Shown here piece after piece: positions 3,777-17,895 of a stretch of DNA of 18,257 bases; positions within the stretch are counted from its first letter, which is position 1; each line of letters starts with the position of its first letter. The notes beneath the pieces were generated by a model, which had not been told where the DNA came from, made no database searches, and saw nothing but the letters and a program-made list of their open reading frames with translations. Position numbers and translations under genes: made by a program. This DNA is from an uncultured Planctomycetaceae bacterium (GTDB lineage Bacteria > Planctomycetota > Planctomycetia > Pirellulales > Thermoguttaceae), in NCBI GenBank assembly GCA_964473065.1, contig CAYYOX010000050.1, positions 1 through 18,257 on the forward strand, in the 5' to 3' direction.

Positions 3777-5024
3777 ATGAACCGGCCGGAACCAGCTTCC
3801 CCAGCAACTGTTTGCTTCGCGTTGTGTATCTTCGCGACCATGGGAAGCGGTCTGCTCCGGGCCGATCCGCCAACGGTCGTCGAGACCGAGATCGTCCATC
3901 ACGAAGACTTGCCGAGCACGGTCGCCGAGCGAGAATTCGATCCCGGGCTGCTGGGCACGCGGCTGCACGGCCGGGACGGTCTGGTTGCCGAATACATCTA
4001 CACGGGTGAAGTCTTCACCAACATCCGCGGAGGGCTCAACACGAACCGTGCGACCGAATACCGCGGCAACCTCGACCTGACCATCACGGCCAACTTGGAC
4101 CAGATGAACCTCCCTCCCGGCGGCACGTTTTTCATCTACGCAGAAGACGGGCACGGCCGGGGTATCTCCGAAGAGCACGTTGGCGACTTCCAGGTCCTGA
4201 GCAATCTCGACGCGCCCGATTTCATGCAGGTCAGCGAGTATTGGTGGGAGCGCACCTTGCTCGACGGGTGCATTATGGTCGCGCTGGGCAAGCAAGACGC
4301 CAATGTGGCTTTTGCCTCCGTACAGATGGGGCTGGACTTCATCAACTCCTCTTTTGGGTTCCATCCCACGATTCCCCTGCCGACTTTTCCCGATCCGAGT
4401 ATGGGGGCCGTAGTCCTGTTTCGACCCAACGACTGGCTCTCCTTCAACGCCGGCGTATGGGACGGCGCACCGGACGGCGGGAACTGGGGCTTCTCCGGGG
4501 AAGGCGTGACCTTCTCGATCTACGAGATTCAGACCGAGTACAAACTCTGGAATCTTCTGCACGGCGATGCGCATTGTGGTCTCTGGTATCACAGCGACCA
4601 GTTTGACAATCTTGCCGGCGGCGCGCCGTTTGACGGGAATCATGGCGTCGACATCGAGGTGGAACAGACCGTCCTGAAGGAACACGCTCACGACGAAGAA
4701 GACGTCCAAGGGCTGGGCGTATTCTTTCAATACGGCTGGGCGCCCAAAGACCGCAATGTGGCCCACCAGTACCTGGGCGTGGGAATGATTTACACGGGCC
4801 TGATCCCCGGCCGTGACGAAGATGTCTTGGGCTTGGGTATCGCGACCCTGCGGTTTAGCGATCGGTTACCCAACACCACGGTCGAATCGGCGATCGAGTT
4901 GTTCTACAAGATGCCGCTCTCGCCCTGGACCGCGATCCAACCCGACTTCCAATACATCGCAAATCCCAGTGGCAACGGACGCGACGCCTTGGTCTTTGGA
5001 CTGCGGTTCGAGGTCGTGCTATAA
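3777..5024 (+). CDS. Carbohydrate-selective porin, OprB family outer-membrane beta-barrel
   Basis: N-terminal signal peptide MNRPEPASPATVCFALCIFATMGSGLLRA. C-terminal YKMPLSPWTAIQPDFQYIANPSGNGRDALVFGLRFEVVL matches the OprB-family C-terminal signature (QPD.QY..NPGG...DA.V.GLR). Aromatic/Gly-rich beta-strand composition. Confidence 0.75.
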   Translation: MNRPEPASPATVCFALCIFATMGSGLLRADPPTVVETEIVHHEDLPSTVAEREFDPGLLGTRLHGRDGLVAEYIYTGEVFTNIRGGLNTNRATEYRGNLDLTITANLDQMNLPPGGTFFIYAEDGHGRGISEEHVGDFQVLSNLDAPDFMQVSEYWWERTLLDGCIMVALGKQDANVAFASVQMGLDFINSSFGFHPTIPLPTFPDPSMGAVVLFRPNDWLSFNAGVWDGAPDGGNWGFSGEGVTFSIYEIQTEYKLWNLLHGDAHCGLWYHSDQFDNLAGGAPFDGNHGVDIEVEQTVLKEHAHDEEDVQGLGVFFQYGWAPKDRNVAHQYLGVGMIYTGLIPGRDEDVLGLGIATLRFSDRLPNTTVESAIELFYKMPLSPWTAIQPDFQYIANPSGNGRDALVFGLRFEVVL

Positions 5025-5028
5025 AACG

Positions 5029-5127
5029 ACCGCGGGGTGGATTGAATCGCGGCGGACCCACGCGATGCGGGGATCCTACCGGAATCCCCCACGCGAGTCT
5101 CGCTGCGATTCAATCCACCCCGCGGTT
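5029..5127. terminator. Perfect 22-bp inverted repeat separated by 55 nt, with a nested imperfect hairpin. Probable bidirectional terminator between convergent genes.
   Basis: 5029-5050 accgcggggtggattgaatcgc is the exact reverse complement of 5106-5127 gcgattcaatccaccccgcggt. Inner cgcgatgcgggga / tcccccacgcg pairing. Sits between the porin stop (5024) and the minus-strand repeat-protein stop (5149). Confidence 0.5.
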
Positions 5128-5148: not shown

Positions 5149-5673
5149 TCAGGCGATGGCGCGATCGAAGAATCGCGACGTGCGGCCACGCAAATGATAC
5201 CGGGCAGCGATCTGCTCGCCGGCGCGATCGAAGAATCGTGAAGTACGGCCACGCAAGTGATACCGGGCGGCAATCTGCTCGCCAACGCGATCAAAGAACC
5301 GCGATGTACGGCCACGCAGGTGATATCGGGCGGCAATCTGCTTGCCGACGCGATCGAAGAATCGCGACGTGCGACCACGCAGGTGATATCGGGCGGCGAT
5401 CTGATCGGCGTCGCTGCTCTGGCTGACGCTGACCCTGCGCGATCGGCTCTTGCTGCCCGTGGCGCCTCGCTTGAAAAACCGCGAGGTGCGTTTCCGCAAG
5501 TGATACCGGGCGGCCAGTTGGGTGCCGGCGGCGTCAAGGTTCGTCTCGGACCCGGCGGCCACTTTGCTCGCGGCATCGTCGGTCTGCGAAGTTCCACTGG
5601 CCAGACTGATGGTGAAGCAGGCCAACACGGCCACCAAGGCCAACACAATACTGATTCTTCCAAAGTTCGACAT
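5149..5673 (-). CDS. Small secreted or membrane-anchored protein with five tandem 21-aa basic repeats (Q-IAARYHLRGRTSRFFDR-xGE). Function unknown.
   Basis: 174-aa ORF. N-terminal hydrophobic signal/TM segment MSNFGRISIVLALVAVLACFTISLASG. Encoded by the 63-bp tandem DNA repeats. Repeat units differ mostly at synonymous positions while the peptide repeat is nearly invariant, arguing for real coding and purifying selection. AAGGGG-like SD about 6 nt upstream of the ATG. Confidence 0.6.
   Translation of the reverse strand: MSNFGRISIVLALVAVLACFTISLASGTSQTDDAASKVAAGSETNLDAAGTQLAARYHLRKRTSRFFKRGATGSKSRSRRVSVSQSSDADQIAARYHLRGRTSRFFDRVGKQIAARYHLRGRTSRFFDRVGEQIAARYHLRGRTSRFFDRAGEQIAARYHLRGRTSRFFDRAIA
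5159..5527. repeat. 63-bp tandem repeat array, 4 full units plus 1 degenerate unit, coding on the minus strand
   Basis: Units begin at 5159, 5222, 5285 and 5348, e.g. gcgcgatcgaagaatcgcgacgtgcggccacgcaaatgataccgggcagcgatctgctcgccg. A degenerate copy lies at 5470-5527. The units are contiguous with no spacers, so this is not a CRISPR array. Confidence 0.85.
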
Positions 5674-5958
5674 GAAAAGCCCCTTTCAAAAGGTGTGCAA
5701 CAGCGGCTGGGTAATTTGCCGGAGGGTACGACGAAGCAAGCCACGAACTTTGCCTCGTCTGATCTTCCCCCATTATGTTAAGGATTCTGTAGTGGATCAA
5801 CAACAAAACCCGCTTCAGGCATTGTAGGCAACCTAGGCCGGCCCGGCAATCGCTATGCCCGTCCGTACCCTAGCAATCGGTGCAATCGGCAGTTTGACGC
5901 AACTCGTTGCCAGCCTTGATAATCCGTCGCCCAAATCGCCGGAAAAGGGCCCCTGCGA

Positions 5959-8367
5959 TCAACCCAATTCGGGCCAAGAAAGATCCAATTTTGCCGTCCG
6001 AAATGCCGTGGATACGTCGATTTGCTGCCGCTGCTGGTCGGACTTCAGGAAATCGGGGATCGCCCGAAGGCAGGCCTCCAGCAGTTCCAGCTCCGAGGCT
6101 GCAAGTGCCTGCAGCTTAGGTCCCGGTTCGATCCGCATGGTGCAGGGATAGGCTTCCGGCGTAGCGACCGGCCAACCGAACTGCTCGGCCGCTTCCAGGT
6201 CGGCCGCGGCGATGGTGAATTCTTCGTCGAACATAAGCGACATGGCCGAGGTCTGTTCGCCGGCCTCTTCGTCGGACAGATTGCCCGAGAGGTGCGAGCG
6301 AAGACACTCCTCATCGAAATAGACAGCCAAGCCCGGGGCCATACCCGATTGACCCATCACGACGACATGCCATGGCCCGCCTTTAAGCTGCTCACTTTCG
6401 ATCCTCAGCCCCGTATCGTCGGGCACGTCTCGCCATGGCGTCCGGCGGTAGAAGTCGGCCGCCGCCTCGTACAGCCCGCCCACGTGCTTCGGCTCAACAT
6501 CGGGAATGTCGACCAAAGCCAGATGAGGCGAGTCGCCTTCGAACTGCGCGCTGAGCGATCTGTAGGCATGGTCCAACATGTCCAGGTCGTTGCTGACCGT
6601 GCATTGCACGCCAACCTCCTCGAGCAACGGCGTGACGATGCGGCGGTGATCTTCCGAACGGACCTCGACCTCTCGCGGACGGTGCGGCTCGCCGGCTAGC
6701 GGCCCGTGCATGGCGTCGGCCAATCGAGCACGGAATTGTTCCGGCGAAGGCGATCCGGGGCTGAGCTCGAACATCAGGACCACATCGTTCGTTCGATCAC
6801 CCACCAGGATCACCCAGGGGCGGCCCGGGGCGTCGTCCATGTCGATCCACGTGGACATTTGATAGGCGTCCATCTGCCAAACTTCATCGAAGGCCTGAGG
6901 CAGTTCGAGCACTTGGCGGATGTCATCCGCCATATTGCCGCTGGACATCCGGTTCGATGCCCGGGGAAGGAATTCGCTGAGGCTCTCTATCGCCCGGTCG
7001 ACGTGTTCCATCGACTTGAGGTACTGGCAAGCGATTTGTACGTTGTCTAGCCGTTTGTTCCACACTTTGACTCGTTTCTTGGTGGCCGTCTGGATCATTT
7101 CCGGCCGTCGCGGCTCGCCGACCAACGGATGCAACATGGCGCCGACCAGTGCCTCGAGGATATCCCCGTCGGTTGGCCGGTCGGGCTGGGTTTCCAAAGC
7201 CACGCCTTCTCCGGACGCGGCGTCGACGACGATCGCGGCCCAAGGAGGCTTCTCTTCGCCTTCCATCATGCAATCGGCCGGCAAGCGGCGGATATCGACC
7301 TGCCAGAGTTCCCGTTCCACCTGCGGCAGCTCGCGCAGCTCGTCAGCGAAGTCGTAGAAGTCGAACGACTCGGGCCCCGGTCCCGGCAACCCCACGCCGG
7401 AGGCAGTCCGCAGCCAGGCGATAGCGCCCGGCGTGGCTCGCCATGAGGGCAGGAACTCGGACGCGTACAACATGGCCTCATCCTCGCCGCCAGGGCTGAA
7501 GTGGCCCGGCAACTCGCGCGGTATGTGGACATCGCCGAGCAAGCATCGCGGAACGTACTCGTTGCCCTTTTGAGCTTCGGCCAGTGCCTTGCGGGCGGAC
7601 TTCGAGTCGCCCTCGCGCCGGAAGGTCAGCAAGACGTTTCCATACATCCAATGCGCCGTGTCGTCTTCTTCGAACTGTTCGAGCAACTGCTCGGCATCCT
7701 TGTGGCAGTTGGTCTCGAGGTAGTATCTAAGCAGAAGCCATCGAACACCCTGGTTATCCATGGGGTTCAGACGCAACATATCCCGGCAGTGTTCGATACT
7801 CTTGTCGCGTTGTCCGTCCGCCCACAGGCACTGGGCCAGTTCGAGCTTGGCTCGCATGTACGGTCGAGTTTCCAGAACACCCCAGAAATGTTCGGCACAA
7901 TCACGGAATGTTTCTTCTCCCAGCGCGCGTTCGCCGGACGCCACGGCCTTTTGCAGTAACTCCTTGACCTCGTCAAAACTTCGGGCCTCTTCGGCCAGGA
8001 GCAAGTAGGCGTCGGTGCAGTCGGGACACACGTCCAGGGCTTTGCGCACCAAGTTTTTCTGCTGTGAAGGCGAGGCATCGAAGGCCTCGTACATGATCTG
8101 CTGAGCCCGCGCTTGCGGCGAATCCTCGTCCCAAACACCGCTCCCCAGCGGGAGCCCCGCCAAGATACCCTCCATGGCCCGACGATCGGGAAACGGCGGC
8201 GGGTTGTCAAACGGAGAATCCTCGAACAAGTCATCACCGAAGACCGGTCCGTCGAAGAAGAACTCCCTCTCATTGGCCTTCTTCGAGGCCTGCTTGCGTT
8301 TCCGCTTCTCGGCCTTCTTGCGTTTGATGGCCGCCGTCTTCTGTTTCCTGGCCTTGTTCTTACTCAT
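5959..8367 (-). CDS. ST7-like TPR-domain protein: polybasic N-terminus, then a C-terminal half made of three tandem copies of an uncharacterised ~115-aa domain
   Basis: Start ATG at complement 8365-8367, with GAGGAG 8 nt upstream. N-terminus MSKNKARKQKTAAIKRKKAEKRKRKQASKK. Segment ALDVCPDCTDAYLLLAEEARSFDEVKELLQKAVASG...NEYVPRCLLGDVHIPRELP resembles the ST7 (PF04184) family, e.g. the CATAYILLAEEEA... pattern. This is recognition from memory and was not searched. Three internal repeats start with W(Q/R)xD...PW..(I/V)(L/V)V.D. The ORF-track extension to 8595 translates as low-complexity junk and is rejected. Confidence 0.7.
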   Translation of the reverse strand: MSKNKARKQKTAAIKRKKAEKRKRKQASKKANEREFFFDGPVFGDDLFEDSPFDNPPPFPDRRAMEGILAGLPLGSGVWDEDSPQARAQQIMYEAFDASPSQQKNLVRKALDVCPDCTDAYLLLAEEARSFDEVKELLQKAVASGERALGEETFRDCAEHFWGVLETRPYMRAKLELAQCLWADGQRDKSIEHCRDMLRLNPMDNQGVRWLLLRYYLETNCHKDAEQLLEQFEEDDTAHWMYGNVLLTFRREGDSKSARKALAEAQKGNEYVPRCLLGDVHIPRELPGHFSPGGEDEAMLYASEFLPSWRATPGAIAWLRTASGVGLPGPGPESFDFYDFADELRELPQVERELWQVDIRRLPADCMMEGEEKPPWAAIVVDAASGEGVALETQPDRPTDGDILEALVGAMLHPLVGEPRRPEMIQTATKKRVKVWNKRLDNVQIACQYLKSMEHVDRAIESLSEFLPRASNRMSSGNMADDIRQVLELPQAFDEVWQMDAYQMSTWIDMDDAPGRPWVILVGDRTNDVVLMFELSPGSPSPEQFRARLADAMHGPLAGEPHRPREVEVRSEDHRRIVTPLLEEVGVQCTVSNDLDMLDHAYRSLSAQFEGDSPHLALVDIPDVEPKHVGGLYEAAADFYRRTPWRDVPDDTGLRIESEQLKGGPWHVVVMGQSGMAPGLAVYFDEECLRSHLSGNLSDEEAGEQTSAMSLMFDEEFTIAAADLEAAEQFGWPVATPEAYPCTMRIEPGPKLQALAASELELLEACLRAIPDFLKSDQQRQQIDVSTAFRTAKLDLSWPELG

Positions 8368-8715
8368 CCCGAAGACTCCTCGTGCCGCACCGTGGGAAAG
8401 AAACCATCGCCAAGTTTGACGCCACGGAAGCCCCTTGTCCAGCCCCGAAAAGGGGGGCAGGCACCGAGCTGCGAAGATTTCCGGCGGGTTTAGCATCCAC
8501 TGATGCTCGGAGCCAGTCCCCTTTTTCCACTCCACACAACCGACTTTGCAGACCTCCTGGCATTCCAACCCGGGGATTTGACATTTGGCGCCCAATCCAC
8601 GATGATGAAGCAGTAGCGGAGAAATACCTCGCTATGGGGGGGAGTTCAAGATTCGCTTTCTCGGAGCGAATTACCTTCAACACAACCACCGAACCAATGT
8701 GGAAGGAGGTGTATC

Positions 8716-9330
8716 GTGGATGCTGTTTTTATGGTCTGCGCCGCCATCGGCTGTACCGTGCTGATCGCGCAATTCGTACTGACGCTGATTGGCCTGGGTG
8801 GCGAAACGTTTGACATCGACATGCCCGGCGACATCGATTTCGATACCGACTTCGACACCGATTTCGGTGGTGTCGACGCAAGTCATGTCGATTCGACGTG
8901 GCTGTTCGGAATGATCTCGTTCCGTACGGTCGTGGCTGCCCTGGCCTTCTTCGGTTTGGCCGGCCTGGGAGCTCAGGCGGCGGGAGCCTCGGTTTTCTCG
9001 CAGTGGCTCGTGGCGGTGGCGGACGGCTTGGCAGCCATGTATGGCGGCTACTTCCTGCTGCAGAGCCTGAAGCATCTTAAATCGGAAGGTACCCCGCGGA
9101 TCGCTCGTACCGTGGGAAAACATGGCACCGTCTATACGACCATTCCGGCCGACGACTCGGCTGCCGGGAAAATTCAGATTAACCTGCAAAACCGGACTAT
9201 GGAATATCTTGCCATGACTTCCGGGCACGCGCTCGCTCCGGGAGCTAAAGTTGTGGTAACAGACGTAATCACCTCGAATACGGTTCAGGTTGAGCCGTTC
9301 TTAGAAACAGAAAGGGATTCCCATGTCTAA
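8716..9330 (+). CDS. NfeD-like / YqiJ-family membrane protein (TM N-terminus, acidic linker, C-terminal OB-fold). Partner of flotillin.
   Basis: GTG start at 8716, with GGAAGGAGG (8701-8709) 6 nt upstream. Hydrophobic N-terminus. DIDFDTDFDTDF acidic tract. Second TM pair. C-terminal beta-rich KHGTVYTTIPADDSAAGKIQINLQNRTMEYLAMTS...VVVTDVITSNTVQVEP typical of the NfeD OB domain. Overlaps the downstream flotillin start by 8 nt. Confidence 0.75.
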   Translation: MDAVFMVCAAIGCTVLIAQFVLTLIGLGGETFDIDMPGDIDFDTDFDTDFGGVDASHVDSTWLFGMISFRTVVAALAFFGLAGLGAQAAGASVFSQWLVAVADGLAAMYGGYFLLQSLKHLKSEGTPRIARTVGKHGTVYTTIPADDSAAGKIQINLQNRTMEYLAMTSGHALAPGAKVVVTDVITSNTVQVEPFLETERDSHV

Positions 9331-10945
9331 CCTATCTCTATTTGCCCAGTTGGGGCCGCTAGGCGACCTTGGTACAATTGCCGCCATTACTGTGGTGATT
9401 GTGCTCGTTGTCCTGTTCAGCTTCGTGATGCTCGTAAAGGCGTTCTACAAACGCTGTCCAAGCAACCGCGTGTTGGTCATTTACGGTAAGACCAGCAAGG
9501 GCGAAGCCGCCACTTGTATGGCCGGAGGAGCCAAGTTCGTCGTGCCGCTGGTCCAGGACTATGCCTGGCTCAGTCTCGAACCGATGCAGATCGAGATCCC
9601 GTTGCGCGGGGCACTGTCGATCGAAAACATTCGCGTGAATGTACCCAGCGTGTTCACCGTAGCCATCGGCACCACGCCGGAACTGATGACCAACGCGGCC
9701 ATCCGCCTGTTGGGGTTGAGCTTCCACGACATCGAGAAGCAGGCCTCGGAAATCATCTTCGGGCAGCTCCGCCAAGTGATCGCCTCGATGCGGATCGAGG
9801 ACATCAACCGCGACCGCGACACGTTCCTTACCCATGTGCAAAACTCGCTCGAACCGGAGCTGTTGAAGATCGGCCTGAAGCTGATCAACGTGAACATTAC
9901 CGACATCACCGACGAGTCGGGCTACATCGAAGCCATCGGGCAGAAGGCGGCCTCTGAGGCCATCCAGAACGCCCGCGGCGACGTGGCCGACAACGAGAAG
10001 ATGGGCGCCATCCGCGTGGCCGACGCCGAGCGGGAAAAGGCCATCGAGGTCGCCGACGCCGAAAAGATCCAGAAGATCGGTACCCGAGAAGCCATGCGGA
10101 CCCAGGCCGTTCGCGTTGCTGACCTCGACAAGGAACAGCAGGTCGGCGAACAGTCGGCCAAGTTCGAGCAAGATGCACAGGTTAAAGAAGCCGAGCGCGA
10201 AATGCGTATCAAGCTGGCCGACGCCGACGCCCGCGCGGTCGAGGGCGAGAACCTCGCCAAGGCCGATATCGCCGCCTCCCAGGCAGAGTTGCAAGTGAAG
10301 CGTGCCGAAGCCTACGAGTTGGGCGAAACCCGCAAGGTTCGTGCCGAGGCCGCCGTACTCGAGGCCGAGCACCATGCCCGAGCCAAGGCCGCCGTGGCCG
10401 AAGCCGAACGGGTCGAGGCCAAGCGGCGTGCCGAGCTAGAAGCTCCGGCCAAGGCCGAGAAAGCCAAGATCATGGTCGAGGCCGAAGCCGAAGCGGCCAA
10501 GCTCCGCATCGAGGCCGAAGGTGAAGCGTCCGCCATCTACGCCAAGCTCGAAGCCGAAGCCCGCGGCCAGTACGAAATCCTGGCCAAGAAGGGTGATGGA
10601 CTCGAACGGATCGTCGAAGCATGCGGCGGCGCCCAGCAAGCCTTCCAGATGTTGATGCTCGAACACTTCGACAATCTGGTCGACGCCTCGGCCAAGGCCA
10701 TCTCGAACATCAAGTTCGACAAGGTGGTCGTCTGGGACACCGGCAACCAGAACGGCACCAGCAGCACGGCCAATTGGCTAACCAACATGGCCCAAACCTT
10801 ACCGCCGATGATGCAAGTCATGAAAGACATCGGCGGAGTGGAAATACCCGAGACGCTCGCCAATCTGGGCAGCATCGGCAAACAGACCGAAACCAACGGC
10901 AAGCAATCCGAACCGGTTACCACTGCGGAAACGCCGAAGGAGTAG
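9323..10945 (+). CDS. Flotillin-family SPFH/band-7 protein (YqiK/FloT-like)
   Basis: N-terminal TM helix. SPFH core VLVIYGKTSKGE...GALSIENIRVNVPSVFTVAIG. Long Ala/Glu/Lys-rich coiled-coil repeats (EAEAEAAKLRIEAEGEA...) characteristic of flotillins. AAGGGA SD upstream. Confidence 0.85.
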   Translation: MSNLSLFAQLGPLGDLGTIAAITVVIVLVVLFSFVMLVKAFYKRCPSNRVLVIYGKTSKGEAATCMAGGAKFVVPLVQDYAWLSLEPMQIEIPLRGALSIENIRVNVPSVFTVAIGTTPELMTNAAIRLLGLSFHDIEKQASEIIFGQLRQVIASMRIEDINRDRDTFLTHVQNSLEPELLKIGLKLINVNITDITDESGYIEAIGQKAASEAIQNARGDVADNEKMGAIRVADAEREKAIEVADAEKIQKIGTREAMRTQAVRVADLDKEQQVGEQSAKFEQDAQVKEAEREMRIKLADADARAVEGENLAKADIAASQAELQVKRAEAYELGETRKVRAEAAVLEAEHHARAKAAVAEAERVEAKRRAELEAPAKAEKAKIMVEAEAEAAKLRIEAEGEASAIYAKLEAEARGQYEILAKKGDGLERIVEACGGAQQAFQMLMLEHFDNLVDASAKAISNIKFDKVVVWDTGNQNGTSSTANWLTNMAQTLPPMMQVMKDIGGVEIPETLANLGSIGKQTETNGKQSEPVTTAETPKE

Positions 10946-10974
10946 TCGCTCCTAATCGCAACAACCAATAACGA

Positions 10975-11005
10975 AGCCCAGGGGTTGCAACCCCTGGGCT
11001 TTTTC
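10975..11005. terminator. Bidirectional rho-independent terminator hairpin between flotillin (+) and rubrerythrin (-)
   Basis: agcccaggggttgcaacccctgggct (10-bp GC-rich stem, loop ttgcaa), followed by ttttt on the plus strand. T-rich run on the minus strand as well. Confidence 0.8.
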
Positions 11006-11549: not shown

Positions 11550-11661
11550 CTCGTTCTCCTTAGCGTGTTCGTTTGATCCAACTTGAAAAGATCCTCACAG
11601 GATACTATTCGTGCCATCGAGTGTCAACCCGCCGAAGCGCACGAAGCAAGTAGAGCCCACG

Positions 11662-11694
11662 AAGCCCACGGGTTGCAACCCGTGGGCTTTTCTC
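11662..11694 (+). other. Second copy of the GCCCANGGGTTGCAACCCNTGGGC hairpin, with a T-tract, in the divergent rubrerythrin / beta-helix intergenic region. REP-like element or leader attenuator.
   Basis: aagcccacgggttgcaacccgtgggcttttctcc. Relative to the copy at 10975 it carries a compensatory swap in the stem (c-a-G-g-g-g/ccccTg becomes c-a-C-g-g-g/cccGtg) and the same ttgcaa loop. Adjacent partial duplication gcccacgaagcccacggg. Confidence 0.5.
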
Positions 11695-11730
11695 CTAGGC
11701 TGGGTAGTTTCCAATCGGAGGCTATCCCCC

Positions 11731-14433
11731 GTGAGAAACGCTCTATTCGCCGCTGCCCTCTGTCTTGGACACCTCTCGCTCGCCGACGCAGCGGAAACGC
11801 CGTATGTCTTGCACGTCGCTCCCAACGGCAACGACCAATGGTCCGGCACATTGGCCGAGCCGAACGAGACCCAAACCGACGGGCCCCTCGCGACCGTTGC
11901 CCGAGCACGCGATGCGATCCGCCAGCGCGACGAGAGACTCGATAGACCGGTCGTGGTCACCATTCGCGGCGGAACCTACTTCCTCACCGAGCCGCTCATT
12001 TTCACACCCGCCGACTCGGGCACGGCCCAGTGCCCCGTCACCTATCGAGCCTACCCGGGCGAAAAACCGATCCTCAGCGGCGGACGAACCGTCGAGCGTT
12101 TCACGAAAGAGACCGGCAACCTCTGGTCGGTCGAGATCCCCGAGGTCAAAGATGGGCAGTGGTACTTCTACCAACTCTTCGTCAACGGCAAGCGCTGCAC
12201 TCGGGCAAGGATCCCCAACCGCGGATACCTCCGCACCGAACGCACCTTGCACGAGCGGTTCTATTATCAGAACGACGACATCCAACGCTGGACCAACTTC
12301 GAGGACATCAGCGTGGTGTTGATGCACCTTTGGGAAGCGTCGGTCCACTTCGTCGACGAGTTGGACGAACAGAAACGGATGGCCCGACTCAACTCGCGGA
12401 TCCCTTGGGGTGGGTTCTATCCGCCTTGGGAACGGCATCAGCGATACTACGTCACCAATGTGCTCGAAGGCCTCGACGCGCCGGGCGAGTGGTACTTAGA
12501 TCGCAAGTCGGGGCGGCTCTCCTATTACCCTCGCCCGGGCGAAGACATGGCCACGGCTCAAGTGATCGCCTCGCGACTGCCGGTCACGCTAATCGAATTG
12601 CGCGGCGAGCCGGCCCAAAACCAGTTCGTCGAGCACCTGCATTTCGAGGGCCTCTCGTTGCAACATGCCGACGCCGATCTTTCACGCAATGTGATCAACA
12701 GCGGTCAGGCCGCCGCCGGGCAACGGGCCGCCGTCATGGGTATCGGACTGCGCCATTCGAGTTTTCGCCGTTGCGAGATCGCCCACGTCGGCGAACATGC
12801 CATTTGGCTGCGGACCGGCTGCCAGGACAATCAAATCGCCGAGTGTTACCTCCACGACATGGGCGCCGGCGGCGTGCGGATCGGTGAACCGGGCACGGCC
12901 GCCAGCAAGGCCGAAGCGGTCGAGCGAAACACGGTCGACAACAACCTGATCCACCATGGCGCCCGGCTGTTCCATGGGGCGTGCGGCGTCTGCGTGGCGC
13001 GGAGTTCTTACAACCAAATCACGCACAACGACATCAGCGACTTCGGCTGGATCGGGATCGCCGTGGGCTGGCAGTGGGGTTATCAACCGACCACGGCCCA
13101 TCACAATACGATCGATTTCAACCACGTCCACCATATCGGGCACGGCATCATGTCTGACATGGCGGCCATCTACACGCTCGGCATCTCGCCCGGCACGACC
13201 GTCCGCAACAACCTGATCCATGACGTGAAAGCCTATCCGAAATACTACAACAAGGAACTGATCACCGGCGGCGGCTATGCACCGCAAGAGGCCAGCGGCA
13301 TCTATCCCGACGAAGGCACTTCCGAAGTGCTTTTCGAGAACAACGTGGTCTACAACGTCGACGGCCGCTGCTTCGGCATCAACTACTGCCGCGATAACAC
13401 GCTGCGCAACAACATCTTCGCCCAATCGCCGCACGGCCTGGGGCTAAACATCGCCGACGCCGGGCACCTGCAGATCGACGCCCAGCGAAACATCATCTGC
13501 TGCACCACGCCGGAGATCCTGTTCGGCGCCTGGCTGGGCAAGCAGGTCATGGACAACAACCTCTATTGGGTCACGTCCGGCGAACCGCCCGTCTTTTCCG
13601 GCCGCACGCTGGCCCAGTGGCAGGCCGAAGGATACGACCAGCACTCGATCGTGGCCGACCCGGGATTCGTTGACCCGGCCGCGGGCGACTTCCGTTTGCG
13701 GCCCGACTCGCCGGCCTTGAAGCTCGGATTCAAGCCGATCGACATCGACGCGGCCGGGCTCTACGGCAATCCCGAGTGGGTCGCCATGGCCGAGAACCTG
13801 ACACAGCGCGAGGACGACCCCGACCCGCCGCCGCGATGGCCCGAGCCGATCGACGAGGATTTCGAGGACTCGCTCGCGGGCGAATACCCGGTCCGAGCCA
13901 CTCCGATCTGCCGCGGTCTCACCCGAGTTCACATCACCAACGAGACGTCGGCCGGCGACGGGCGTCAGTGCCTGAAGTTCATTGATGCTGGCGGCGTGCC
14001 CGAAACGTTCTGTCCGCACATCAACTACCAGCCGAACTTCAAGACGGGCCCGGTCGCGTTCTCCTGCCAGATCAAGAACCCCAGCGCCGCGCCCGCCACG
14101 ATCCAGATCGAAATGCGCGACTGGCGTCAGCTATCCTACCGCGTCGGTCCCAGCCTAACCCTACGCAAAGACGGCCAACTGCTGGCCGCCGGCCGCGAGT
14201 TGGCCAAAATCCCGCTGGACCAATGGATCACACTACAGATCAACTTCACATTAGGCCAGGGCGCTGAAGAGACCTATAAGCTAACTCTCACCGTCCCCGA
14301 CCAACCCCCAAAGACCTTCACGCTCCCCCACACCACGCCCAATTTCCAAATCCTAACCTGGCTAGGCTTCTCGAGCCTCAATGACGCCAAGGCCACCTTC
14401 TACCTCGACGAAATCCGGCTCGAACAGGAATAG
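11731..14433 (+). CDS. Secreted right-handed parallel beta-helix repeat protein (pectate-lyase-fold), putative polysaccharide-active enzyme, with a C-terminal beta-sandwich region
   Basis: GTG start at 11731, with GGAGG 9 nt upstream. Signal peptide VRNALFAAALCLGHLSLADA. LHVAPNGNDQWSGT...PLATVARARDAI...VTIRGGTYFL is typical of DUF1565 / pectate-lyase-like beta-helix proteins. Repeated NN(L/I)IH.. beta-helix rungs. The ORF-track start at 11611 would place the coding sequence across the hairpin, so it is rejected. Confidence 0.75.
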   Translation: MRNALFAAALCLGHLSLADAAETPYVLHVAPNGNDQWSGTLAEPNETQTDGPLATVARARDAIRQRDERLDRPVVVTIRGGTYFLTEPLIFTPADSGTAQCPVTYRAYPGEKPILSGGRTVERFTKETGNLWSVEIPEVKDGQWYFYQLFVNGKRCTRARIPNRGYLRTERTLHERFYYQNDDIQRWTNFEDISVVLMHLWEASVHFVDELDEQKRMARLNSRIPWGGFYPPWERHQRYYVTNVLEGLDAPGEWYLDRKSGRLSYYPRPGEDMATAQVIASRLPVTLIELRGEPAQNQFVEHLHFEGLSLQHADADLSRNVINSGQAAAGQRAAVMGIGLRHSSFRRCEIAHVGEHAIWLRTGCQDNQIAECYLHDMGAGGVRIGEPGTAASKAEAVERNTVDNNLIHHGARLFHGACGVCVARSSYNQITHNDISDFGWIGIAVGWQWGYQPTTAHHNTIDFNHVHHIGHGIMSDMAAIYTLGISPGTTVRNNLIHDVKAYPKYYNKELITGGGYAPQEASGIYPDEGTSEVLFENNVVYNVDGRCFGINYCRDNTLRNNIFAQSPHGLGLNIADAGHLQIDAQRNIICCTTPEILFGAWLGKQVMDNNLYWVTSGEPPVFSGRTLAQWQAEGYDQHSIVADPGFVDPAAGDFRLRPDSPALKLGFKPIDIDAAGLYGNPEWVAMAENLTQREDDPDPPPRWPEPIDEDFEDSLAGEYPVRATPICRGLTRVHITNETSAGDGRQCLKFIDAGGVPETFCPHINYQPNFKTGPVAFSCQIKNPSAAPATIQIEMRDWRQLSYRVGPSLTLRKDGQLLAAGRELAKIPLDQWITLQINFTLGQGAEETYKLTLTVPDQPPKTFTLPHTTPNFQILTWLGFSSLNDAKATFYLDEIRLEQE

Positions 14434-14572: not shown

Positions 14573-14707
14573 AGTGGTTTGGCACGGTAGGAGAGGATGG
14601 TTTCTTCTCGATGTGGTTATTCTCGCTGCAGGCGAACTTGCAGCCAAGTACGAAAGGGCCGCGGCGACTTTTCGCGGAGGGCCCGTTTTTCATGGGGGGT
14701 TGACGAC

Positions 14708-15685
14708 ATGAGACAGGATCGATCGGAGATGGCGATTTGGGGAGTGTGGCTTTGCAGTGCGACACTCGCATTTTTTTCCTGGGCGAGCACCACGCAGGCT
14801 GGAGTTGTGATCGCTTGGGGTGACAATTCGGAGGGCCAAAGCAACACTCCCGAGGGAGACGATTTTGTCTCGGTCTCTGGCGGCTTCTGGCATAGCCTGG
14901 CACTTCGTGAGGACGGCTCGTTGGAGGCCTGGGGCGAAGATGGACCGGCCGTGAACGACGTGCCGTCGGGAAACGATTTTGTGGCCATTTCCGCCGGAGG
15001 GACGCACAACTTGGCACTGAAGGACGATGGCTCGATCGTAGCCTGGGGGGAGAACAATTTCGGACAGGGCGAACCGCCATTGGGCGATGATTTCATCGCG
15101 ATTTCAGCCGGGGCAAACCATAATTTGGCCCTGAGGGACGATGGTTCCATCGAAGCGTGGGGAAAGGACACCTATGCGCAAAATGGATTGCCCTCCGGCG
15201 GTGGATTCCTTGCAGTGGATGCCGGAGGCGTGCATAGCCTGGCGATCCGCGCCGATGGGTCGCTGGCCATGTGGGGTGCCGTCGACGAATTCCCGCTCGT
15301 TCCCGAAGGCAACGATTTCGTCGACGTCGCTGCTGGAGGCTTTCACAGCATGGCCCTACGGCAGGACGGGACAATTGAGGCCTGGACCTCTTGGGACTTC
15401 GCCGGAGAGACTACCGACATCCCGCCTGGGAAGTCTTTTGTGGACATCGAAGCCGGATGGCTCAGCAGCATGGCGATCCGAAGTAATGGCTCGCTCGTCG
15501 TCTGGGGAGACCTCGAAACGGGCAAGTCGGTCGTGGAACTGGGAGAAGGCATCGTCGACTTTGCCGCCGGGCAGAGCCATGCCCTGGCCATTCAAGTCGT
15601 GCCGGAGCCCTCGACCGTCCTACTCTTGGCCAGCGCCGCCGTCAGTCTTCTTCTCATGCGCCGCCGCAGGTCGCGCAACGGCTAG
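14708..15685 (+). CDS. RCC1-repeat (beta-propeller) protein with a C-terminal PEP-CTERM sorting signal, a putative exosortase substrate
   Basis: Signal peptide MRQDRSEMAIWGVWLCSATLAFFSWASTTQA. About 9 repeats of the xAWG.N..GQ...P / GG..H.LAL(R)(D/E)DGS(L/I)(V/E)AWG type, RCC1-like. C-terminal VPEPSTVLLLASAAVSLLLMRRRRS is a textbook PEP-CTERM motif (PEP + TM + basic tail). ATG 14708 chosen over the in-frame ATG 14597 because the latter would add 37 residues before the signal peptide. Confidence 0.8.
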   Translation: MRQDRSEMAIWGVWLCSATLAFFSWASTTQAGVVIAWGDNSEGQSNTPEGDDFVSVSGGFWHSLALREDGSLEAWGEDGPAVNDVPSGNDFVAISAGGTHNLALKDDGSIVAWGENNFGQGEPPLGDDFIAISAGANHNLALRDDGSIEAWGKDTYAQNGLPSGGGFLAVDAGGVHSLAIRADGSLAMWGAVDEFPLVPEGNDFVDVAAGGFHSMALRQDGTIEAWTSWDFAGETTDIPPGKSFVDIEAGWLSSMAIRSNGSLVVWGDLETGKSVVELGEGIVDFAAGQSHALAIQVVPEPSTVLLLASAAVSLLLMRRRRSRNG

Positions 15686-17806: not shown

Positions 17807-17895
17807 CGGAGAGGACAGGATTTGAACCTGCGGACCAGTGTGACCCGGTCACCGGTTTAGCAAACCGGCGCTTTCGACCACTCAGCCACCTCTCC
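17807..17895 (-). tRNA. tRNA-Ser (anticodon GCT), class II with long variable arm. CCA not encoded.
   Basis: Revcomp reads GGAGAGG-TG-GCT-GAGTGGTCGAA-AGC-G-CCGGT-TTGCTAA-ACCGG-(long variable arm TGACCGGGTCACACTGGTC)-CGCAGG-TTCAAAT-CCTGT-CCTCTCC-G. 7-bp acceptor stem. 3-bp D-stem with a long D-loop typical of tRNA-Ser. Anticodon loop TT-GCT-AA. T-loop TTCAAAT. Confidence 0.85.

Follow-up and report, generated by a model that had tools for sequence, protein, structure and literature searches.

Background

Cyanobacterial OprB-type porins carry SLH-domain anchors at their N-termini, and colicins bind the porin OmpF through disordered segments in the porin lumen, with more than one such site per colicin chain. 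Phage T5 encodes Llp, a superinfection-exclusion lipoprotein that binds the outer-membrane channel FhuA from the periplasm (PMC9586334). In the interlocked complexes of RcsF with outer-membrane proteins, a disordered and partly basic segment occupies or threads the porin lumen (PMC4942254). Here we describe a gene for a small, basic repeat protein that lies next to an OprB porin gene on an 18,257-nt stretch of DNA from an uncultured Planctomycetaceae bacterium (contig CAYYOX010000050.1; this whole stretch is called the window in this text). The protein carries five copies of a motif of 16–18 residues; unrelated exported proteins have the same motif as a tail at their C-termini. The motif family is genetically linked to OprB genes, and we tentatively propose that it serves in the periplasm as a docking peptide for these porins or for the envelope next to them.

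The locus is like each of these systems in some respects and unlike them in others. As with Llp and FhuA, small exported proteins would act on an outer-membrane beta-barrel, and several of the phage-borne relatives are tiny lipoproteins or lipoprotein domains that end in the motif; docking is proposed here by analogy. However, there is no sequence similarity to Llp, which is a folded domain and not a linear repeat, and whose partner is a TonB-dependent transporter and not OprB. The window protein also differs from Llp in being chromosomal, non-lipidated and pentavalent. RcsF and the colicins are enterobacterial and unrelated in sequence, and RcsF is assembled by BAM, the cellular apparatus for beta-barrel assembly, and has a folded C-terminal domain; that the motif might occupy a porin lumen is again an analogy.

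The choline-binding repeats (CW_binding_1) are likewise aromatic tandem units of about 20 amino acids (aa) that vary in copy number, sit on diverse passengers and have been borrowed by phages. They form a solenoid that needs several copies, whereas in the present family one copy suffices in half of the members and no fold is predicted; our repeats have no Pfam match and a Gram-negative periplasmic setting. In the cyanobacterial SLH-OprB proteins, a porin of the OprB family is joined to a dedicated periplasmic-side element, and the planctomycete porins have N-terminal extensions and a separately encoded basic partner. Here, however, an SLH domain is absent, a separate convergent gene encodes the proposed partner, and the anchoring role of this partner is hypothetical.

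A repeat gene under purifying selection

The gene and its immediate surroundings comprise the following features:

5149–5673, minus strand: gene for the exported basic repeat protein, 174 aa, with its stop codon at 5149–5151 (open reading frame (ORF), translation, 62 homologues)
5599–5673, minus strand: residues 1–25, MSNFGRISIVLALVAVLACFTISLA, putative signal peptide or signal-anchor (AlphaFold helix, N-terminal pattern of the family)
5521–5598, minus strand: polar, acidic spacer, residues 26–51 (26 aa), net charge −3 (translation, charge count; homologues have an equivalent variable acidic spacer)
5458–5520, minus strand: motif unit 1, diverged, QLAARYHLRKRTSRFFKRGAT (alignment of the units in coding register)
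5404–5457, minus strand: Ser/Arg-rich linker of 18 aa, GSKSRSRRVSVSQSSDAD, between unit 1 and units 2–5 (translation)
5152–5403, minus strand: motif units 2–5, four 63-nt units head-to-tail (Tandem Repeats Finder, unit coordinates, ratio of nonsynonymous to synonymous substitution rates (dN/dS))
5341–5403, minus strand: unit 2
5278–5340, minus strand: unit 3
5215–5277, minus strand: unit 4
5152–5214, minus strand: unit 5
5772–5849, minus strand: two sigma-70-like promoter matches at 5849–5821 and 5800–5772 (consensus matches only; planctomycete promoters may differ)

Tandem Repeats Finder reports an array at 5160–5414 with a period of 63, 4.0 copies, 86% matches and 0% indels, and translation places this 63-bp array inside the 174-aa ORF on the minus strand, as the initial annotation of the window had it. 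That annotation counted five copies of one repeat. There are indeed five units, but only four of them (units 2–5, 21 aa each) share the identical 17-mer IAARYHLRGRTSRFFDR, and unit 1 is a variant. Units 2–5 each consist of QIAARYHLRGRTSRFFDR followed by three variable residues, and unit 5 closes the protein at its C-terminus; a 20-mer form of the motif unit is QIAARYHLRGRTSRFFDRAG. For the mature protein, we computed a net charge of +21 and an isoelectric point (pI) of 11.8. The gap upstream of the gene measures 285 nt and holds both promoter-like matches, and GAAAGGGG is found 7 nt ahead of the ATG.

The differences between the units are nearly all synonymous, while the 21-aa peptide is nearly constant. 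In the 18-codon core of units 2–5, the variable columns are distributed 1/0/10 over codon positions 1/2/3 (chi-square p = 2.6e-4), and Nei-Gojobori comparisons between units give a dS of 0.43–1.34 and a dN of 0.02–0.13, with a dN/dS of 0.04–0.30. Substitutions are thus non-random with respect to codon position, in agreement with what had been read from the sequence at first. An identical protein has been gene-called on three metagenome contigs that are independent of each other and match the window in the neighbouring genes, and homologues conserve the peptide despite diverged DNA. The repeat-protein gene is coding and under purifying selection. Because of the synonymous-site pattern, the homologues with diverged DNA (at least 62 homologues are known) and the independent gene calls, the initial view of a translated, selected and exported product, and not a non-coding repeat, is borne out. 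The high dS among the units of the window means that the surviving copies are old and that selection has held their protein identity.

The opposite view, that this is not a gene at all, could point to an antisense ORF at 5257–5781 that is open on the plus strand and equal in length to the repeat-protein ORF; either that ORF would encode the true product or the repeat would be non-coding. This view is effectively refuted. Only the minus-strand frame shows the codon-position bias, the remaining five frames of the repeat are interrupted by stop codons or change their amino acids from unit to unit, and homologues retain the peptide of the minus-strand frame down to 35% identity.

The protein begins with an n-region (MSNFGR), an h-region of 19 hydrophobic residues and a c-region (S-L-A), followed by SG. 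The hydrophobic signal or anchor segment noted earlier is thus present, and AlphaFold, run with a 24-sequence alignment, models residues 3–26 as a helix with a predicted local distance difference test (pLDDT) score of 88–96. A signal peptidase I site is possible after SLA, where small residues stand at −3 and −1. The long h-region is conserved in sequence family-wide. Among the small proteins encoded next to OprB, the N-terminal pattern M-x-x-x-x-R-[VI]-S...G-L-x-W is conserved (columns 1–30 of the family alignment). Since this conservation exceeds the need of a cleaved signal peptide, the N-terminus may remain as an anchor; judging from the sequence, an uncleaved inner-membrane anchor and a cleaved signal may be equally possible.

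An N-terminal secretion signal, either Sec or lipoprotein, precedes the motif in all proteins of the family, and 24 of 160 have a lipobox-like sequence. Because the motif always lies downstream of such a signal, it is extracytoplasmic. Of the functions first considered for the basic repeat, nucleic-acid binding is therefore unlikely, and binding to a polyanion or to the cell wall is a live alternative that is weighed below.

A strictly conserved motif in Planctomycetota

A logo of 265 distinct units defines the motif as [LVI]-A(97%)-[AG]-R-Y-H(92%)-L-R-x-R(99%)-T(85%)-x-x-F(98%)-[FY](99%)-x-R(98%). The window protein fits the family definition with five copies of [LVI]A[AG]RYH[LQ]RxR[TS]xxF[FY]xR after its N-terminal signal. 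Conservation as strict as this is typical of specific recognition and not of generic charge.

When 5.8 billion proteins were searched by word index, 62 homologues were retrieved. All of them are unnamed or annotated as "hypothetical" and have no Pfam domain; where labelled, they come from metagenome-assembled genomes of Thermoguttaceae or Pirellulales. A profile search against all 1.84 billion cluster representatives yielded 143 clusters at E ≤ 1e-3, nearly all with a length of 46–200 aa. One hit of 2274 aa (P0106) proved to be a false positive, with fibronectin type III (FN3) repeats that contain GATRYHVRN. When one genome per species was scanned, we recovered 22 loci, including one in Rhodopirellula baltica. 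All 22 belong to Planctomycetota except for three bins labelled otherwise, which are probably mis-binned.

The number of copies per protein (n = 160) is one in 79 cases, two in 52, three in 17 and four in 11; the window protein is the only one with five. Two of its orthologues, which share the ST7-gene–OprB synteny and about 90% identical DNA and flanks, have four and three units and are shorter by exactly 63 and 126 nt. As the orthologues differ by exact multiples of 63 nt, units are gained and lost in register, so that the repeat number does vary among related genomes. The gene is a clear case in which the DNA of the repeat units is near saturation at synonymous sites, the peptide is unchanged and the number of units shifts between close strains. 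Across the homologues, linkers are variable and cores invariant. The last motif ends 2–4 residues short of the C-terminus in 84 of the 160 proteins, and many members with a single motif have a tail of 25–59 aa beyond it.

For the repeat protein, no Pfam model scored above threshold (the best, LpoB, reached 19.1 bits against a cut-off of 22.3 bits), NCBIfam gave nothing relevant, PHROGs returned only a 21-bit match to an unknown family, and the best match among PDB sequences had an E-value of 0.16. The string ARYHLR, searched for in the full text of the literature, gave zero papers. The first impression that the repeat matches no known motif has thus held: the libraries and literature searched contain no description of the family or its motif, while an exported protein made of short tandem binding modules is of a known general kind.

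The motif as a portable module

The unrelated exported proteins that carry the motif as a tail include the following:

Trypsin-like protease: P0061, P0142
HEAT-repeat protein: L033
Helical protein of 206–227 aa: L032, P0049–54, P0139
Lipoprotein beta-domains: P0021, P0044, P0093
Membrane anchor plus coiled-coil proteins: P0094, P0157

The motif is a portable module; in its behaviour it resembles a short linear motif more than it does a domain or a helix on the membrane surface. In the AlphaFold model of the repeat protein, only the N-terminal helix is confident; the repeats appear as a low-confidence helix (pLDDT 55–70), and the periplasmic part of the protein is predicted to be intrinsically unstructured. 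The model of the phage lipoprotein P0021 has a mean pLDDT of 49, with 31–44 in the motif region. We also considered an amphipathic membrane helix and rejected it, as shuffled sequences have on average a higher hydrophobic moment at 100 degrees than the motif does. The low pLDDT and the lack of an amphipathic helix fit a peptide that folds on binding.

Genetic linkage to OprB porins

The neighbourhood of the repeat-protein gene in the window contains:

3777–5024, plus strand: OprB-family porin gene, convergent with the repeat-protein gene (Pfam PF04966, E = 4e-47)
5029–5126, no strand assigned: hairpin in the intergenic gap, with arms of 26 nt at 5029–5054 and 5101–5126 that are 96% complementary
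5959–8595, minus strand: gene for an ST7/TPR/DUF6930 protein, upstream of the repeat-protein gene and on the same strand

Using tblastn with the window OprB and then with a panel of OprB sequences, we found an OprB homologue directly adjoining the motif gene in the window and at 19 further loci, which together represent about 20 divergent lineages (L004, L006, L007, L010, L011, L016, L017, L019, L020, L021, L030 (R. baltica), L039, L041, L043, L044, L045, L048, L053 and L056). L004 has, in addition, an OprB paralogue (11964–13253) that is not adjacent to its motif gene. The gap between the two genes of a pair ranges from 0 to 330 nt. They are convergent everywhere except in L016, and the genes that flank the pair on the opposite side differ among the loci. 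A survey of planctomycete outer-membrane proteins gives one to three OprB genes per tabulated genome and no partner protein for them (PMC3422733). With so few OprB genes per planctomycete genome, chance adjacency is very unlikely. The motif family is genetically linked to OprB genes.

Both neighbours lie where the initial annotation had placed them, with the porin gene convergent and the ST7-like gene on the same strand. OprB is the conserved partner, however, and the ST7-like gene is incidental. We rejected it as a partner because its adjacency is confined to the closest relatives.

The mature OprB of the window has a net charge of −35 and a pI of 4.4, and its acidic N-terminal extension has a net charge of −7. 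Many of the adjacent OprBs have an acidic N-terminal linker of 25–70 aa, followed by a conserved PGLLG..LHG and the barrel. In many of them, we also noticed that the mature chain opens with a basic-aromatic hexapeptide (KRFKRYP, TFFRRYP, GRFQRYP, NHFHRYP, GHFRRHP, KRYTRYK). The OprB genes with this pattern of hexapeptide and linker are those of L005 (3744–4841), L006, L007, L010, L011, L016, L019, L021, L041 and L053; the window OprB has the acidic stretch only, without the hexapeptide. There is a faint resemblance between this hexapeptide and the end of the motif, RFFxR.

The stop codons of the OprB and repeat-protein genes are separated by 124 nt. The hairpin in this gap has a 46-nt spacer that contains an inner hairpin, and on the minus strand it is followed by a T-run. 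From its sequence, it is a probable terminator, perhaps a bidirectional one, and it could allow antisense overlap of the OprB and repeat-protein transcripts.

At one locus (L051, 119–5231), a single-motif gene lies directly downstream, on the same strand, of a resistance-nodulation-division (RND) pair consisting of a membrane-fusion protein and an AcrB-like pump. It occupies the position where the gene for an outer-membrane factor is often found.

Phage-borne copies

Seven of the motif loci are phage-like (L009, L032, L049, L050, L054, L057 and L058). Among their genes are those for a DNA methyltransferase, a thymidylate synthase, a ribonucleotide reductase, PhoH, MazG, a DNA polymerase, a ligase and a sigma factor. 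The motif in these loci ends tiny lipoproteins (63–70 aa), larger lipoproteins and membrane-anchored coiled-coil proteins. In L009, L049 and L050, the motif gene is syntenic and follows the DNA methyltransferase gene. One of the coiled-coil proteins, P0157, matches phrog_89, an Rz-like spanin, weakly (E = 4e-4, 21 bits); P0157 and P0094 are encoded beside genes for DNA polymerase, ligase and methyltransferase, and no lysis genes are found nearby. A tblastn search of cultured phage genomes with P0021 gave no match.

A possible docking peptide for the porin

We tentatively favour the reading that the motif docks its carrier proteins in the periplasm to the OprB porin, where we infer the binding itself as well as the partner and the consequences. 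The repeat protein would be exported by Sec and then either cleaved or held in the inner membrane by its N-terminal helix. Its target on the neighbouring OprB could be the acidic N-terminal extension together with the periplasmic face, or else the lumen. With five copies, the protein might bind several porins, or a single one with high avidity. The outcome would be a porin that is tethered to the inner membrane or the cell wall, clustered, or occluded, and the number of units would be tuned through the in-register gain and loss of 63-nt units. Phages of these bacteria have grafted the motif onto lipoproteins and membrane-anchored proteins, presumably for the same envelope site, as superinfection-exclusion proteins do.

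A wider claim is possible but more doubtful. According to it, Planctomycetota would address OprB-type porins by a near-invariant peptide of 16–18 residues. Small proteins in the periplasm or anchored in the inner membrane would tether, cluster or gate the porin with one to five copies of it, and host enzymes would be localised to the porin by it. Phages would have captured it several times, on lipoproteins and membrane-anchored proteins, and would block or exploit the same porin, for example in superinfection exclusion. If this were true, it would amount to a new porin-accessory system and to a first molecular handle on planctomycete envelope organisation and on the conflict between phage and host. 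The planctomycete envelope is poorly understood with regard to outer-membrane tethering, porin regulation and phage receptors. The motif is strictly conserved, phylum-specific and easily recognised, it is linked to the main general porin family, and phages have borrowed it repeatedly. It offers an experimental entry through a short synthetic peptide or the knockout of a small gene; Rhodopirellula baltica, for which a cultured model strain exists, has a single-motif orthologue beside an OprB gene.

Several observations weigh against docking at OprB. The charges of the repeat protein (+21) and of the window OprB (−35) are complementary, but this is weak evidence because an acidic pI is common among outer-membrane proteins. 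The two genes are convergent, hence the motif gene and OprB are not co-transcribed. About a third of the bacterial loci have no OprB within 5–6 kb (L008/L013/L042, L014, L018, the L022–L029 lineage, L031, L040 and L051); these have no other porin type and no other neighbour in common, with DUF1501/PSD1 genes, esterases, a metallo-beta-lactamase (MBL) hydrolase, a gene for a TPR/Pro-rich protein and one for an RND pump next to them. L037 retains a four-unit gene (P0004) beside a mere C-terminal OprB remnant of 76 aa (L037 3042–3272), which points either to decay of the porin gene with retention of the small one or to a faulty assembly. The phage copies, finally, lie in replication-type modules, and no gene in their vicinity is annotated as having a receptor-binding or exclusion function.

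The main rival holds that the repeats are a generic anchor for polyanions of the envelope, such as peptidoglycan, the phosphates of lipopolysaccharide (LPS) and lipid A, or anionic phospholipids, and that the protein tethers or stabilises the outer membrane and cell wall. It would then be functionally similar to choline-binding repeats, Lpp or Pal, and its adjacency to the porin would reflect a shared role in envelope architecture. We consider this rather unlikely, although the repeats are rich in Arg and aromatic residues with a high net positive charge, and R-Y-H-L-R fits the pattern basic-hydrophobic-polar-hydrophobic-basic that has been proposed for LPS-binding peptides. The motif is also modular, copy-variable, attached to diverse passengers and used by phages, as are cell-wall-binding repeats; some loci do without OprB, and the basic-aromatic hexapeptide of many adjacent porins (e.g. 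KRFKRYP) could engage the same third component. However, eight near-invariant positions exceed the needs of charge-driven binding, and an amphipathic helix has been rejected for the motif. No peptidoglycan hydrolase, the usual carrier of wall modules, occurs among the members of the family that were inspected (about 140 clusters), and the CW_binding, LysM, SPOR, OmpA-like and SLH models of Pfam do not match.

The position of the last motif so close to the C-terminus in about half of the proteins would also suit a processing or sorting tag, as would the variable linkers between invariant cores, which recall multi-core peptide precursors, and the cationic and aromatic character of the units, which many antimicrobial peptides share. 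An unknown envelope protease or sorting machine would cut the five-copy polyprotein into cationic peptides of about 20 aa with antimicrobial or signalling function, which might exit via the porin, or the tag would send C-terminally tagged proteins to a compartment. This is improbable, since the neighbourhoods examined have OprB as their only conserved gene and share no gene for a modifying enzyme, a protease, an exporter or immunity, and since the motif is frozen across orders whereas antimicrobial peptides usually diversify. Many single-motif members, moreover, continue well past the motif. As more specific candidates, we rejected a multi-core precursor of a ribosomally synthesized and post-translationally modified peptide (RiPP), as the proteins have Sec or lipoprotein signals, which are atypical of RiPP leaders, and no conserved modifying enzyme (ATP-grasp, radical SAM, YcaO, protease); and a sorting tag of the PEP-CTERM type, as the last motif is followed by 2–4 small residues and no hydrophobic segment. 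Least credible of the functional readings is a periplasmic ligand carrier, whose Tyr-His-Arg-Thr clusters would bind a metal or oxyanion that enters by the OprB-type porin. Each unit does have invariant Y, H, T and three or more R, the gene adjoins a porin gene, and iron/anion sites of the transferrin type have Tyr, His and Arg as their ligands. Still, there is a single Tyr and a single His per unit, no fold is predicted, no transporter gene is linked, and a carrier would make no sense of a motif that is also appended to phage lipoproteins and to unrelated proteins.

Other features of the window

When the window was scanned with Rfam, a tRNA at 17807–17895 was the sole match. Two further tandem repeats are present. 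At 2692–2787, between a URO-D-like and an MBL-fold gene, a 34-bp unit occurs in 2.8 copies with 90% matches; it consists of the palindrome GCGACCAGCGGTCGC and a T-rich tail and looks like stacked terminators or hairpins of the repetitive extragenic palindromic (REP) type. At 10463–10528, two copies of a 33-bp repeat lie in the 3' part of a Band 7/SPFH gene (9323–10945). In the region 10001–11000 the AT skew is unusually strong (+0.36), which suggests that the protein has a C-terminal tail of low complexity and of the Ala/Glu/Lys type.

Two other exported or surface proteins are encoded in the window. A GH141-like beta-helix protein (11611–14433) stands ahead of an RCC1-repeat protein (14597–15685) with a terminal PEP-CTERM motif; the PEP-CTERM model matches this protein and not the repeat protein.

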